64,000 bases of DNA. Source: a virus (taxonomy: Duplodnaviria > Heunggongvirae > Uroviricota > Caudoviricetes). The translations under genes and the position numbers were made by a program. Below, piece by piece: positions 27,801 to 47,033 of the stretch (position 1 is its first letter; the number at the start of each line of letters is the position of its first letter). The DNA is taken from IMG/VR virus record IMGVR_UViG_2703718819_000006; one strand, given 5' to 3'. Under the pieces are notes generated by a model. It was given only the letters and a program-made list of their open reading frames with translations, did no database searches and was not told where the DNA came from.

Positions 27801-28356
27801 ATGGGGTAGGGTGCGGATAAACCACACTATAGAAGTTGTCTTTTCCACCCGCTGTAATCAGTGAGCTTATGATTTTTGCAAAATCGTTGCGTTGGAACAC
27901 GCTACCGATGTCGGAAGTGAGCAGGATGATGTTGCCTTTGGCATATGTAGAAACCAACTGTTCGAGCGAGAGACGCGGTACAAAGTAGAACTGTTCTCGT
28001 GTGTTGGCCACCGTCATTAGTTCGCAGATGTCGCGATATCCTTGCTCATTTTTAATTAGAGCGGTAAACGAGTAGTTACGTCCTCGCTCTAATGATTCCA
28101 TACATCCCTTAGACTCTTTAGCAATTTTAGCCCGGTACTCGTATGTGGGATCATCAACGATATTTAGTTTCACACCACAAATAACCGCCATGTCGTCACC
28201 AGCGGCACGTTGTAGTGGAATAACGCTCGCAATATTCATGCTATCTGCTGAAATTACAGCGGTGTAGCCAGCTTCTCTGGCAATCTTCACCGCGTTTTCT
28301 GCTTTTAGAGCCGACTCCCCAAGTGAGAAGTCAGTTCGAACCATCAGTGCCTTCAT
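24838..28356 (-). CDS. dnaE: DNA polymerase III alpha-like replicative polymerase (DnaE family)
   Basis: 1172 aa; core motif [27 protein letters not shown] matches DnaE (GPGRGSGAGSLVAY...) as recalled; N-terminal PHP-like region appears to lack the usual His cluster. Confidence 0.9.
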   Translation of the reverse strand: [1172 protein letters not shown]

Positions 28357-32287: not shown

Positions 32288-32538
32288 TCAATCAATCCAT
32301 TCTAACTTATACTATGGTAAGGAATACTACTAAAATTTATATCAATACTGAATACATTCATATCATATGCAAGTTAATTTTCTTACCTGTTTTGGGCTAA
32401 TTTTTCTCCGTGCAATGGCCTTTAACCGGTCTTTTAAGTGCCTATCGAAAAAAATGATAATAGCTTTACAACCCTAACCTTTGATGTAATATCGGTAAGC
32501 ACTTACCAGAGAGAATTGAACGCGCAAAGGTTGTAACC

Positions 32539-32925
32539 ATGTCTGATAACAAGATTGAATTTATAGAAAGTCGCTATGCTGCTTTTATCGCAGGGCTGAT
32601 TGAATCCTCACCTATGAGTCAGGCCCAAATAGCCAGACTTATTGGTTATAAAAATGCCAACAACCTTTCTTTAATTAAAAGTGGCAAAATTCCTTTGCCT
32701 ATCGATAAGGTTCGTCCGTTGGCGCTGGCGCTGGGTATTGAGCCAAGTCGTCTTATGATGATGGTGCTGGAAGAACGCCAACCTGAACTCGCAGCATTTT
32801 TATACAAAGAAGGCACCGCTCCTCTTAACGAGGACGAAAAACAGGTTCTTGCTGCATATAACGAGCGATTCGGTAAAGAGAAAGGCGCATCACAAAAGGT
32901 TGTTGAGGCTATAAAGTCTCTATGA
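32539..32925 (+). CDS. XRE-family helix-turn-helix transcriptional regulator
   Basis: 128-aa plus-strand ORF; MSQAQIARLIGYKNANNLSLIKSGK resembles an HTH_XRE helix-turn-helix. Confidence 0.6.
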   Translation: MSDNKIEFIESRYAAFIAGLIESSPMSQAQIARLIGYKNANNLSLIKSGKIPLPIDKVRPLALALGIEPSRLMMMVLEERQPELAAFLYKEGTAPLNEDEKQVLAAYNERFGKEKGASQKVVEAIKSL

Positions 32926-34023
32926 AAAATTTACACGAATAAGCTCTGTTGATAGACGATCTCCCTTGAATTTGTGGTCAATTTCGTCTAAATCCGGTTG
33001 CTCTACGATTGATGCGATGTACGTCGAGAAACTTTCTAAGGCGTCTCGCATCTCGTCCATATAATCGTGCCGGTCGTAGACTCGATCTATCCCCTCAAGA
33101 CTGTGGTTCATGATTTTGCGTGATACCTCCTGGCTTATGCCTAATGCTGGGAAGTAACTACGCGCAGTACGGCGCAAGTCTCGGGGTGTAAATGGCTCAA
33201 GCTCCATCAGTTCTGGTCGTTCCAGAATACGACGTAATGCCTGGGCTATTGCCACTTTAGACATAGGAAGGTCTTTCCCGATTTTTTTATTCGAAGGCAC
33301 GAGCCACTGGCTGCCTTTACCGTATTCGAACAACTCTTCAATACATGTGCGCATTAATGTGCTTAAAGGCAGCGAATGCTCACGGGCAGATTTGTTCCTC
33401 TTGCCTTGATTCCAAACCCCATGCTTAAGATTGAACTCACTTTTTTTAGCCCGCAGTACTTCGTCAGGTCGTCTTGCGGATACAAGACACAGCCTGGCCG
33501 CCCATTTTGTACCAGCGCACACATTGAAGTAGTCCCATATATTCCAGAACACCCATACCTCTGCGTCGGTCAGCTTCCGCTCGCGAGGTGTTGGCTTTGC
33601 GCCACCGGCAACTTTGTTAAGTGACATATCGTTTAACGGTGACACGTCTATCATCCCCTGGAAGGCGCACCAGCTAAGGAACTGCTTCATCAGAGAGAAA
33701 ACGCGGCGGCCCATAACAATTTTGCCATCCAGTATTAGTGGGTTGACCAGTTGGTTCACCATGAACCTATTAATGTCACTTACTTTTACATCGGCAATGT
33801 GCGGCAAAACATGTATCAAAATACAATGAACAGCGATCTCTGGCCGACGTCTTGTTATCAGCAAAGATAAGCGAGTGAATAACATGAATGCGTCCGAGAA
33901 TCTCATGTCATTGCTGACCTGGGAGATCATAACGGCCTGCATTTGAGATGCTCTTTCGAGATACTCAATCGCCTCTTTTGAGGTGTTCTCCGCAGCGCGT
34001 GCTCTGTCAAAGCTATTTTTCAT
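32920..34023 (-). CDS. int: tyrosine recombinase (phage integrase family)
   Basis: 367 aa; box I-like LVSARRPDEV, box II-like FTPRDLRRTARS, C-terminal NHSLEGIDRVYDRHDY with candidate catalytic Tyr. Confidence 0.7.
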   Translation of the reverse strand: MKNSFDRARAAENTSKEAIEYLERASQMQAVMISQVSNDMRFSDAFMLFTRLSLLITRRRPEIAVHCILIHVLPHIADVKVSDINRFMVNQLVNPLILDGKIVMGRRVFSLMKQFLSWCAFQGMIDVSPLNDMSLNKVAGGAKPTPRERKLTDAEVWVFWNIWDYFNVCAGTKWAARLCLVSARRPDEVLRAKKSEFNLKHGVWNQGKRNKSAREHSLPLSTLMRTCIEELFEYGKGSQWLVPSNKKIGKDLPMSKVAIAQALRRILERPELMELEPFTPRDLRRTARSYFPALGISQEVSRKIMNHSLEGIDRVYDRHDYMDEMRDALESFSTYIASIVEQPDLDEIDHKFKGDRLSTELIRVNFS

Positions 34024-34182
34024 ATGACAATCACCGAGTTACGCCGATGCACTGTATAAGTAAACAGTATATTAGGCATAGATTCTTATAGGATCAAGAG
34101 TCAAAGTAACTCATTTTTAGTAATGATTCCATACATAGTAGGTATGGAATCATTTTAGGTCTAAAATTTAAATCTGTAATAT

Positions 34183-34368
34183 CTATAGAGAGGAATTGCA
34201 CGAAAACCGATAACCCTTTATAGCGAGGATTATTGGTTTATTTTTGTTATGGCGTCGTTGTTCCGCCGGGATTATCAAGTTCGATTTTGAGATTTTGATC
34301 AGAGCGTTGGCCCTGTGGGACACTGAAGCTATTACTTTTGGATCAGGAGGCGTGAAACTTTTCTGCAA
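34183..34368 (-). CDS. possible small protein
   Basis: 61-aa ORF overlapping the end of 34343..34759; weak. Confidence 0.2.
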   Translation of the reverse strand: MQKSFTPPDPKVIASVSHRANALIKISKSNLIIPAEQRRHNKNKPIILAIKGYRFSCNSSL

Positions 34369-34759
34369 CGTCTGAAAAAAACTTTAGCAACCTAGTATCT
34401 CTAGCAGACATGCGATCGTGAGCTGGAGTGACTAAACCCATCAGCAAATAACGGCCGCTCTCCCACATATGCTCGGTATAGATGAGATAGTGATCTGAGG
34501 TTCGATTGTAGTTTTCTTGCCTTGCAGTCCAAGTTAACTGGTAATGCAAATTTACATGAATATGTTGGACGTTAGCGTCAACGGCAAACGGAGGAAAGTC
34601 GAATGGCGCATCCCTACCGAGAAGGTTGGACGGCTTACCCGTGGATTTGTAGGTAATGAACTCAGTTTTGAGCTGACTTTCCAGATCAGGATAAACGACA
34701 AACGTGGGTTGAAAAAAATCAACCCACGTATCTTGACTGTATTCAGCCGTCAATGCCAT
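34343..34759 (-). CDS. hypothetical protein
   Basis: 138-aa ORF, start overlapped by the upstream gene (10 nt). Confidence 0.5.
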   Translation of the reverse strand: MALTAEYSQDTWVDFFQPTFVVYPDLESQLKTEFITYKSTGKPSNLLGRDAPFDFPPFAVDANVQHIHVNLHYQLTWTARQENYNRTSDHYLIYTEHMWESGRYLLMGLVTPAHDRMSARDTRLLKFFSDVAEKFHAS

Positions 34760-35298
34760 TTAGCCGCAGCCTTGTTGCCAGTCATCAATAGATGGTTCAT
34801 GGCAGAAAGGTTCACGCCAGACTCACGCACACAAGAGGTGCGAGTAATCTGATCAATCAGATTTAGATAATTTTTGGCGGCAATACTGACCATTTTAATA
34901 GCTTTAAAGAAGGCAAACTCTACAGCGTTTTTGTCGTAAGACAAAATGACGTCTTTTTCAGGTAACATCAAAACGAAAGATTCTGCGATACCGGCTACAT
35001 GAATAGTTTGATTCTTAATTTCTTCCGCTACATTGATAGCAGCAAAGAAGTCAGTATCAGCATAACGAGCAAGTTCAGCGCGGCTTGCGCGAAGTTCTGT
35101 CGCTAGCTCATTAAGGGCTGCTGTAAGATCACTGATGTCGGTTTTATTGACTCTAGCGCCCATCTCATAAACCCGCTCTACAATAGTAGGCTGACACGCA
35201 ACCGCTTTTGGTTGCGGCTGGATACTGGCAAGAACCAGTGCCACTGCTGCCTGTAAATGCTGGATTTTAAATTTCACGATAGACTCCATTGTCGTCAT
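34750..35298 (-). CDS. hypothetical protein
   Basis: 182-aa ORF, first gene of a two-gene overlapping pair. Confidence 0.5.
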   Translation of the reverse strand: MTTMESIVKFKIQHLQAAVALVLASIQPQPKAVACQPTIVERVYEMGARVNKTDISDLTAALNELATELRASRAELARYADTDFFAAINVAEEIKNQTIHVAGIAESFVLMLPEKDVILSYDKNAVEFAFFKAIKMVSIAAKNYLNLIDQITRTSCVRESGVNLSAMNHLLMTGNKAAAKWH

Positions 35299-35390
35299 TT
35301 CTCGACGAGGCGTAGCATTCTACTACTGAATCTAACTATAAGCTAAAAAAACTTGGTTGCATATGCGACTTAGACTGCAAAACACGAAAT

Positions 35391-36238: not shown

Positions 36239-36325
36239 TGGCGGAGAGTAATGGAATCGAACCATCATCGCTTGCGCAATGGGACGGTTTTCAAGACCGC
36301 TTGAGCACCATGCTCCCTACTCTCC
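36239..36325 (-). tRNA. tRNA-Ser (anticodon UGA), type II with long variable arm
   Basis: Hand-folded: acceptor GGAGAGT/ACTCTCC, anticodon loop CTTGAAA, T-arm GATGG-TTCGATT-CCATT, encoded CCA. Confidence 0.75.
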
Positions 36326-46365: not shown

Positions 46366-47033
46366 TATTCTTCTTCCTCCAGACTCAACAGATAATCTAC
46401 AAATTCTTCAAACTCGGCTTCCGCCTTTTTGTCGCGCTCGCTACCGGTCATTTCAAAGATAGAACGACCAGACTCTTCCGCATCATCATAGACGTTGCGG
46501 TTATATAGATTGACTGGCGCAGACTCGATTCCAAACGTCTCAACAATCTCTTTAGCCGCCAGAATGCGAGACACTTGTGATGGCAAAGCCGGGCACTGGT
46601 TCATGACCGCGCGGACCTTCACTTTATCGTTTACATTGCGAACATTGTCGATAATAGGATCGATGTCACGTAAAGATTTCAAATCACGACGCTTAGGACG
46701 CAGCGGGATAATGATAACGTCAGCCATCAGCATCGCTTGTCGCTGAATTTCGGAGTCGAAGCCACCAGCATCTACCACTACAAACTCAGCTCTACCCTGA
46801 AGCGATTTTAGGTGCTTAATGATGTCATCCTGAACGTATGCAAAAGGAATCAGCTCAAGGTCTTCGTTCTGTCGACGGTCTTCACACCAGCTCGTTGTCG
46901 TGCGCTGAATATCTATATCGGTAATATAAACCTTCTTCTTCTTTTTGACTTTCAGGCAAACGGCAATTTGCTGGGCAACGGTGGATTTGCCAGGCCCGCC
47001 CTTTGTGCCGCCAACCACAAAGATCTTGGTCAT
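46365..47033 (-). CDS. parA: ParA-family partition ATPase (small type Ib)
   Basis: 222 aa; deviant Walker A KIFVVGGTKGGPGKST; ParA/MinD-like VVVDAGG. Confidence 0.8.
   Translation of the reverse strand: MTKIFVVGGTKGGPGKSTVAQQIAVCLKVKKKKKVYITDIDIQRTTTSWCEDRRQNEDLELIPFAYVQDDIIKHLKSLQGRAEFVVVDAGGFDSEIQRQAMLMADVIIIPLRPKRRDLKSLRDIDPIIDNVRNVNDKVKVRAVMNQCPALPSQVSRILAAKEIVETFGIESAPVNLYNRNVYDDAEESGRSIFEMTGSERDKKAEAEFEEFVDYLLSLEEEE

Follow-up and report, generated by a model that had tools for sequence, protein, structure and literature searches.

The 64,000-nucleotide stretch of viral DNA analysed here (IMG/VR record IMGVR_UViG_2703718819_000006; hereafter the window) belongs to an SSU5-like phage-plasmid of Escherichia coli. 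The region around its tyrosine recombinase gene probably combines a Cre-like recombinase that has its own lox-like site for multimer resolution with a cargo pair that consists of a YafO-family toxin and its presumed antidote. Positions 32300-34160 share 97-99% identity with Escherichia phages CMS-2020a and Cyrano, two SSU5-like elements of ~108 kb. SSU5-like elements are phage-plasmids, i.e. temperate phages maintained as plasmids, and in the SSU5 supergroup tyrosine recombinases are among the persistent genes and toxin-antitoxin systems are found in the shell genome (PMC7969092). New here are a lox-like site with natural spacer variants, an adjoining cargo hotspot, and a YafO toxin that is coupled to an orphan, exported-looking partner, which we call A.

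The candidate site is a 33-bp palindrome located 98 bp 5' of the recombinase ATG, with perfect 13-bp inverted arms around a 7-bp spacer (Table 1). Its conservation was assessed in 80 related loci retrieved from IMG/VR. The palindrome was present in 79 of them, the sole exception being a truncated locus, and in all 79 it lay 76-132 bp upstream of the recombinase start, including loci whose recombinases are only 56-60% identical. The arms were unchanged across 55 distinct sequence contexts with varying flanks, and in the most divergent locus the three outermost positions were altered on both arms. The spacer took 9 forms in these loci and a tenth in the more distant L005 and L006, giving at least 10 in all. 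Such fixed arms around a freely varying centre of 6-8 bp give the palindrome the anatomy of loxP, FRT and dif, which are built as 13-8-13 (loxP and FRT) and 11-6-11 (dif). Both features of a Cre/lox-type target were thus present, namely inverted arms of 11-14 bp around a spacer of 6-8 bp and one site per replicon. From these sequence comparisons we infer that the palindrome is a lox-like multimer-resolution site, on which the recombinase would act for the purpose of resolution. Literature searches returned no prior description of the site sequence, nor of an SSU5 recombinase or SSU5 dimer resolution.

The palindrome is distributed as a plasmid-borne, single-copy element. In the 108-kb genome of Cyrano it occurs once, and its 10-bp core occurs five times, as the two arms and three isolated copies, all five lying no more than 9 kb from the recombinase gene. 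In a search of 5426 complete E. coli genomes, the site with its flanks turned up in 252, at 504 BLAST places on plasmids and 0 on chromosomes. We read the two places per positive genome as the two strands of a single palindrome, and each plasmid carries one full site. A search for chromosomal attB sites or integrated prophage copies gave 0 among the 5426 genomes and no attB-like match. Homology with three relatives (one 97.6% and two 72% identical) extends from the left across the recombinase gene and ends at 34154-34156, the outer edge of the palindrome. On the cargo side, whatever the cargo, there is a semi-conserved, promoter-like stretch of ~25-30 bp of the AGATTTAAA type. The -10 of a sigma-70-like promoter candidate for the recombinase overlaps the right arm; the scan that proposed it is weak alone, with 3 sites found and 6.3 expected by chance.

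As single-stranded DNA, the palindrome folds at -11.1 kcal/mol (z = -7.8). A role as an intrinsic terminator was rejected, as the terminator scan made no call, the palindrome is not followed by a T-run on the cargo-transcribed strand and the stem is invariant. In one locus (L074) the spacer, TTAATAG, is the exact reverse complement of the common CTATTAA, and the gene order is the same on both sides; this could reflect three substitutions in a near-palindromic spacer or be the trace of a spacer inversion.

The recombinase matched PF00589 over residues 172-320 (E=4.3e-10; 40.1 bits against a gathering cut-off of 27.1) and the PHROG_1 integrase family (E=2.2e-46), with a weak Pfam match to Phage_int_M. 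On alignment with E. coli XerD and IntS, R185, K211, R284, H307 and Y316 fell in the canonical catalytic columns, and the 9 family members compared, the most distant at 56% identity, have all of these residues unchanged. The catalytic set thus consists of five of the six canonical residues and one family-wide substitution, with the nucleophile and both arginines kept. A reading of the window made earlier from sequence alone had proposed a recombinase-family gene here, and this was borne out by the PF00589 score above cut-off and the nearly complete catalytic residues. It had also said that a recombinase without catalytic residues would speak against it; the alignment shows these residues, bar one that is substituted and is not the nucleophile.

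The first ~90 residues of IntS aligned to a gap, and no DUF4102 or other arm-binding Pfam match was found at E<=0.1. Thus, the arm-binding N-terminus of IntS has no counterpart, which points to a two-domain (core-binding plus catalytic) architecture of the Cre/Xer rather than the lambda/P4 type. The C-terminal YDRHDY...E.R motif is P4-integrase-like in the IntS alignment. A further copy of the arm core, TTGATTCCATACATC, lies inside the recombinase gene in lineages with recombinases 84-87% identical to that of the window (L047, L055-L077, L081, L085) and in a 56% locus (L087). It is antisense, at ~+736 from the palindrome, over the codons for a conserved DVWNQG motif, and the recombinase gene of the window itself has no exact match to it. 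This in-gene copy may be a coding coincidence or a real site.

Three isolated copies of the 13-bp arm, hereafter half-sites, were found in the window. All three read AATGATTCCATACATC, with ~0.002 exact 13-mer matches expected by chance, and all three point toward the palindrome. Their positions are conserved in lineages that are only ~72-78% identical around them: the half-site at 28091 has its equivalent in Cyrano at 47010, the position of that at 37411 is kept in a 72%-identity lineage and in many IMG/VR loci, and the position of that at 38423 is kept in other lineages.

Compared with Cre/loxP of P1 and its relatives Dre/rox, VCre/VloxP and Vika/vox, the system is alike in belonging to a plasmid prophage, in its simple recombinase without an arm-binding domain, and in its single target per genome with two perfect 13-bp inverted arms and a short asymmetric spacer. 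In contrast to Cre/loxP, the spacer is 7 bp rather than 8 bp, an arginine replaces the HxxR histidine, the C-terminal motif is P4-integrase-like, sequence similarity to Cre or solved recombinases is not detectable, three half-sites are present, and the site abuts a cargo hotspot. In P1, Cre/loxP resolves multimers so that the low-copy plasmid segregates (PMC7969092). In the mechanism that we propose, two recombinase monomers, bound to the 13-bp arms, would carry out strand exchange over the 7-bp spacer, and in a plasmid dimer recombination between the directly repeated sites would yield monomers, so that partition works. Since the site overlaps the putative -10, bound recombinase may also repress its own synthesis. 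A cis site directly upstream of the recombinase gene of a low-copy plasmid, with autoregulation possible, is also known from ResD/rfsF of F and Rsd/crs of the Salmonella virulence plasmid. These sites have accessory repeats beside the core, whereas here the core stands alone and the extra arm copies lie kilobases away.

The slot beyond the palindrome is an accessory-gene hotspot. Slot and palindrome, the most informative features of the region, were not noticed in the sequence-only reading. It begins beside the palindrome and is bounded in the backbone by the glutaredoxin gene (grx) and the recombinase site. Slot contents were scored in 79 of the related loci: 29 were empty, with the glutaredoxin gene ending 83-85 bp from the palindrome, and the others held at least 10 different gene sets. 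The pair found in the window was present in 6 loci, and a distant version of it (partner 37% and toxin 44% identical) in 7; in 9, a YafO-like toxin of a third kind came after an unrelated 202-aa protein. The remaining loci carried a 178-189-aa protein, either alone or accompanied by a ~100-aa partner on the opposite strand, a 329-aa protein, an AraC-type regulator, a fimbrial subunit or other genes. The cargo ends distally at the grx terminator and a diverged grx 3' end, with no second full site or half-site there, which argues against an integron-like mechanism; a site-bounded cassette array beside the integrase gene, as in integrons, was not found, each element having a single full site. The slot is like the defence hotspots of P2 and P4 in that a fixed backbone position is either empty or holds many unrelated small gene sets, including toxin-type modules. 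It differs from them in that no tested cargo matches a PADLOC system. The accessory genes in the slot vary between lineages, and the window has a mobile two-gene operon there.

Two other kinds of cargo were observed in the slot. In L045, L046, L081 and L023, the 202-aa protein, which has no family match, is followed after a 9-nt gap by a 136-137-aa YafO protein (PF13957, E=2.8e-22) that is 25-29% identical to the toxin of the window. Homology between A and this 202-aa partner was considered and rejected (hhalign probability 1.6%). In L028, L058, L067, L085 and L003 (5992-6546), the slot holds an opposite-strand protein of 157-189 aa of the Cyrano CYRAN_43 type, after which an overlapping 88-168-aa protein is often encoded. 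None of the three proteins scanned from such modules had a Pfam match, and these genes may be further two-gene accessory or defence candidates.

The 138-aa protein of the pair is a member of the YafO family. It matched YafO_toxin (PF13957) across the whole domain (E=2.7e-21), has the RelE/HigB fold, and is 30% identical to E. coli K-12 YafO, with the GRD and IH motifs kept. An identical protein, present on 137 contigs, is labelled YafO-family toxin in public records. The score against the NCBIfam YafO equivalog NF007377 was 52.7 bits, far under the cut-off of 153, and the protein is therefore a family member rather than a YafO ortholog. Its sequence gave no meaningful match in the PDB. YafO toxins with unclassified partners were noted by Leplae et al. 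2011, none of them on plasmids or phages (PMC3141249), and our literature search found no earlier description of YafO on phage-plasmids. Within the toxin coding region (34702-34729, minus strand), a perfect 11-bp stem with a 6-nt loop, ACGTGGGTTGA TTTTTT TCAACCCACGT, lies 30-57 nt in. The 42-nt segment that contains it folds as RNA at ~-20 kcal/mol. A core of 4-7 bp of this stem persists in the close subfamily, whereas the distant one lacks it. The stem may lower expression of the toxin or may result from the conserved TW...PT codons.

The toxin gene is strictly paired with the gene for A. The two genes overlap by 10 nt in the window (34750-34759), confirming the overlap reported for the 138-aa and 182-aa open reading frames by the sequence-only reading, and 10 nt is the usual overlap elsewhere. 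In 13 of 13 intact pairs extracted, the overlap is 10 nt and the toxin ATG lies within the final Lys-Trp codons of A. The same order, A and then the YafO gene, was found on phage-plasmids, an Enterobacter plasmid, a Pantoea plasmid and long contigs of Leclercia, Pseudescherichia and Erwinia. Wherever the downstream gene is readable and undecayed, A is followed by a YafO gene, and this extends to relatives of A that are only 19-29% identical. The ~100 bp upstream of A are conserved in 15 phage-plasmid, plasmid and chromosomal loci, and sequences farther upstream are unrelated; a GCATATGC palindrome in this promoter region is kept in most copies of the module. The promoter region also contains, at 35341-35365, a 25-nt inverted match (76%) with CATATGCAA to positions 32364-32388 upstream of the XRE gene, which could be chance.

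The module decays in one direction only. S56 plasmid B (L050) has lost the toxin through a 433-bp deletion and retains A, and in Pseudescherichia P0022, L096 and L097 the toxin is deleted down to its last residues, to which A is now fused. The single toxin sequence that lacks A is itself a fragment truncated at its N-terminus, and many toxin clusters are fragments. Thus, decayed copies lose the toxin, and loss of A with an intact toxin was never seen, as would be expected were the toxin harmful in the absence of A. The pair is organised like a toxin-antitoxin system, as a two-gene operon in which the gene for the presumed antidote comes first, overlaps the toxin gene and is inherited with it as a unit. 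We infer that A neutralises the toxin, and likewise the manner in which it would do so: the toxin would cleave mRNA on the ribosome, the translationally coupled A would keep it harmless, and the module would serve the plasmid in addiction or abortive infection.

A itself is an orphan. Its gene was delimited by aligning 15 upstream regions, in which the first ATG (35298) is unconserved. What is conserved is a GTG or TTG codon with a GGAG Shine-Dalgarno sequence 6 nt ahead of it. A homologue is also annotated as 175 aa in RefSeq, and the start of A is therefore likely the GTG at 35277, giving 175 aa from MKFKIQH. A had no match in Pfam, NCBIfam (E<=0.1, bar noise), PHROGs, PADLOC or PDB sequences. 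Among 5.8 billion proteins its family forms 39 clusters, assigned to Enterobacterales in every case in which the source names the organism, and an exhaustive profile search through 1.84 billion representatives retrieved only 24. The AlphaFold2 (AF2) model is all helical, with a predicted local distance difference test score (pLDDT) of 83.6, and a fold search with it gave generic helical-bundle matches only. Thus, of the two proteins for which the sequence-only reading had proposed profile searches, the 138-aa protein matches YafO_toxin and its partner matches nothing. The earlier view that neither had an assignable function does not hold for the 138-aa protein, given its PF13957 match (E=2.7e-21) and the name already attached to the identical protein.

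The N-terminus of A resembles a signal peptide. Within the first ~30 residues there are a positive n-region and an 11-residue hydrophobic core (Kyte-Doolittle 1.8-2.7), followed by small residues at -3/-1 in AxA-type sites such as AVA/C, the slash marking the cut. From the GTG start, the leader of A in the window is MKFKIQHLQAAVALVLASIQPQPKAVA, 27 residues ending before the C. The call was made with a home-made heuristic rather than a trained predictor. In the enterobacterial subfamily no part of A is better conserved than this segment, an unusual property in a signal peptide, and the AF2 model has a confident helix there (pLDDT 78-88). The candidate that A is a lipoprotein was rejected: AVA/C has a Lys at -4 and a Gln in the hydrophobic region, which break the usual lipobox rules, and the Cys is not conserved across the family.

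Compared with YafN-YafO of the E. coli dinB operon, the module is alike in its PF13957 toxin, with 30% identity and the GRD and IH motifs, and in having the partner gene upstream of the toxin gene, overlapping or nearly abutting it. In contrast to YafN, which has 97 aa, the partner here has 175-182 aa, is all helical, is not of the Phd/YefM type and has a signal-like N-terminus, and the module is mobile rather than part of an SOS operon. The sequence-only reading had suggested a toxin-antitoxin-like pair. Its direction was right, as there is a YafO toxin with a coupled partner, but A is not YafN-like and looks exported. With such an N-terminus, A fits poorly with a classical antitoxin, to judge from its sequence.

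Several observations weigh against the combination of a resolution system with a toxin-antidote pair that we favour. The half-sites, 2-6 kb away, fit no role in a simple resolution model; the position of the HxxR histidine is Arg281 in every family member; PDB sequence searches with the recombinase and with a 9-member family profile matched no solved recombinase, which is why it was aligned with XerD and IntS; and the palindrome overlaps the predicted recombinase -10. In the cargo, A (175-182 aa) is bigger than the toxin, the library and fold searches detected no DNA-binding or antitoxin domain in it, all 18 members tested have the Sec-signal-like N-terminus, across subfamilies with unrelated N-terminal sequences, the usual sequestration of a cytosolic toxin would not be possible for an exported A, and PADLOC found no known defence system in the cargo tested. 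Some of these points would suit a palindrome that serves as an operator of the recombinase promoter, bound by the XRE protein or another dimeric repressor, with the half-sites as further regulator sites: the overlap with the -10, the constant linkage of the XRE gene to the recombinase gene, and the half-sites at 28091, 37411 and 38423, which are easier to understand as binding sites than as recombination sites. The stable single-stranded fold would likewise suit a hairpin that insulates backbone and cargo from each other. We consider such a purely regulatory palindrome quite unlikely, as loxP and FRT are built on the same plan of 13-bp arms and a 6-8 bp spacer and dif on a similar one, free spacer variation beside fixed arms is how a strand-exchange region behaves, HTH-XRE (helix-turn-helix) operators are usually much shorter, and an invariant, non-covarying stem argues for recognition by protein and against an RNA hairpin. 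The roles of operator and recombination site could coexist. It is very unlikely that the recombinase drives gene capture at the palindrome, by integron-like or cassette exchange, with the half-sites as decayed old junctions. This would agree with a slot that starts directly at the palindrome in three independent comparisons, with the 29 empty slots among 79 and the variety of gene sets in the others, with discordant identities (in L044, recombinase 90% and pair 99%), and with half-sites that each keep the palindrome-distal arm, that at 37411 retaining a decayed second arm. However, each element has one full site and none at the far cargo edge, chromosomal copies of the A-toxin module lack the site, the ~25-30 bp of semi-conserved promoter-like sequence separate the palindrome from the true cargo, and homologous recombination between conserved flanks explains the mosaicism equally well. 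The sequence-only reading had offered multimer resolution or integration as the role of the recombinase, with the nearby tRNA cluster as integration-site context; of the two roles, resolution is to be preferred. A phage integrase that inserts at a chromosomal tRNA gene is extremely improbable, although the best database labels read 'integrase' and the YDRHDY...E.R motif is like that of P4-type IntS, such integrases having tRNA genes as targets. All 252 site-bearing genomes carry the site on plasmids, the recombinase lacks an arm-binding N-terminal domain, and the tRNA genes are complete and located on the element itself, as they are in the annotated virion genome of Cyrano. The search for att-like repeats that had been suggested found none joining a tRNA 3' end to the recombinase region. 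Integration at tRNA genes was thus rejected, and the tRNAs are genes of the phage-plasmid rather than an integration context.

For the cargo pair, the alternative is that A is truly exported or membrane-anchored. It would then not be a conventional cytoplasmic antitoxin, and the pair not a classical type II toxin-antitoxin system; we regard this as rather unlikely. In one version, Sec-dependent removal of A from the cytoplasm would replace proteolysis as the source of antitoxin lability; in another, A would be an envelope sensor or exclusion factor with a cytosolic RelE-fold effector, acting in abortive infection or superinfection exclusion. The signal-like N-terminus shared by all members tested despite their unrelated sequences, the typical 27-residue leader from the GTG start, the lack of an antitoxin or DNA-binding domain in any library and of an informative fold match, and the resemblance of the slot to defence hotspots of other temperate elements are all consistent with export, and a literature phrase search found no precedent for a periplasmic, secreted or membrane-anchored antitoxin in this sense. 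Against it, the signal-peptide call is heuristic only, the N-terminus is the best-conserved part in the enterobacterial subfamily and a confident AF2 helix, and the gene order, 10-nt coupling and toxin-first decay are what a neutralising cytoplasmic antitoxin predicts; moreover, the cytoplasmic tail left by a signal anchor would probably be too short to hold the toxin. The more specific proposal that Sec export of A, by its continuous removal or its position in the envelope, arms the toxin of a module carried in the exchangeable slot beside the lox-like site seems to us improbable.

If the resolution reading is true, the recombinase and its 33-bp site would explain how these low-copy elements avoid the multimer catastrophe, and the site would mark the exact position of accessory-gene turnover. 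SSU5-like phage-plasmids are common in E. coli, as seen from the site on plasmids in 252 of the 5426 complete genomes, and phage-plasmids are described as spreading resistance genes (PMC9600943). Since the recombinase shows no sequence relation to Cre, Flp or Xer, it would, on this reading, form with its site a candidate orthogonal recombination tool, and the natural spacer variants hint at built-in incompatibility classes. Likewise, if the reading of the pair is true, YafO-family toxins travel on phages and plasmids with non-YafN partners, and the export-like leader of one partner family raises the question of how such a toxin is restrained.

Table 1. Features of the recombinase region and its surroundings, in window positions
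Feature	Position	Strand	Basis and details
Half-site, 13-bp arm copy AATGATTCCATACATC	28091-28103	+	Exact match; inside the DNA polymerase III alpha gene, antisense
XRE-type helix-turn-helix regulator, 128 aa, backbone gene	32539-32925	+	Open reading frame, PHROG_8, linkage
Simple tyrosine recombinase, Cre/Xer-like, 367 aa	32920-34023	-	Pfam, PHROG, XerD/IntS alignment
Lox-like core site candidate, AATGATTCCATAC-ATAGTAG-GTATGGAATCATT	34122-34154	.	Direct reading and repeat search
Sigma-70-like promoter candidate for the recombinase	34152-34180	-	Consensus scan; -35 ATTACA, -10 TAAAAT
YafO-family toxin, 138 aa, predicted ribosome-dependent mRNA endonuclease	34343-34759	-	PF13957, RelE fold
Partner gene A, probably 175 aa (maximal open reading frame 182 aa, to 35298)	34750-35277	-	Start by upstream alignment
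Conserved promoter and 5' leader of the A-toxin operon	35278-35380	-	TATAGT/TAGAAT -10-like hexamers, GCATATGC palindrome, GGAG Shine-Dalgarno
tRNA genes Ser, Thr, Tyr, Asn	36239-37218	-	Window scan
Half-site, 13-bp arm copy	37411-37423	-	Exact match; then decayed second arm (ATCACATT GTATG-AATTA)
Half-site, 13-bp arm copy	38423-38435	-	Exact match; ATG is the start codon of a 50-aa open reading frame, 38282-38434

All four open reading frames that the sequence-only reading had placed in this region are present in the open reading frame listing of the window at those positions. The XRE-like and recombinase genes are convergent and overlap by 6 nt, here as in all 80 related loci. The XRE protein matched the PHROG_8 'transcriptional regulator' family (E=6.6e-12), with Pfam matches to HTH_19 and HTH_3 under the gathering score, and the homologue of its gene in Cyrano is annotated as 'putative repressor'. 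The recombinase and XRE genes are backbone genes, their pair recurring in 80 of 80 related loci with XRE identities of 46-100%. As this pair recurs in related genomes and the arrangement of A with a YafO gene recurs in others, the gene arrangement is not due to chance. The surrounding genes (CobT-like, glutaredoxin, N4-gp49-like, DNA polymerase III alpha and the tRNA cluster) follow the Cyrano map gene for gene. The Cyrano record OV696614 (L103, L104) contains further genes of the toxin-antitoxin type, namely KacT with its antitoxin, a RelE/ParE gene beside parA, and HicAB, and the YafO module of the window would be one of several addiction-type modules on such elements.

The tRNA cluster differs from that of Cyrano, in which the Ser, Thr and Asn genes are contiguous. 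In the window, ~640 extra bases lie between tRNA-Ser and tRNA-Thr and a tRNA-Tyr gene is added (36326-36971 and 37052-37138). At 36303-36475 in this extra stretch, there is a sub-threshold Rfam match to the small RNA STnc100 (42.5 bits against 47). A 20-nt inverted repeat (36159-36178/36217-36236), 95% complementary with its halves 38 nt apart, ends 2 nt before the tRNA-Ser gene.

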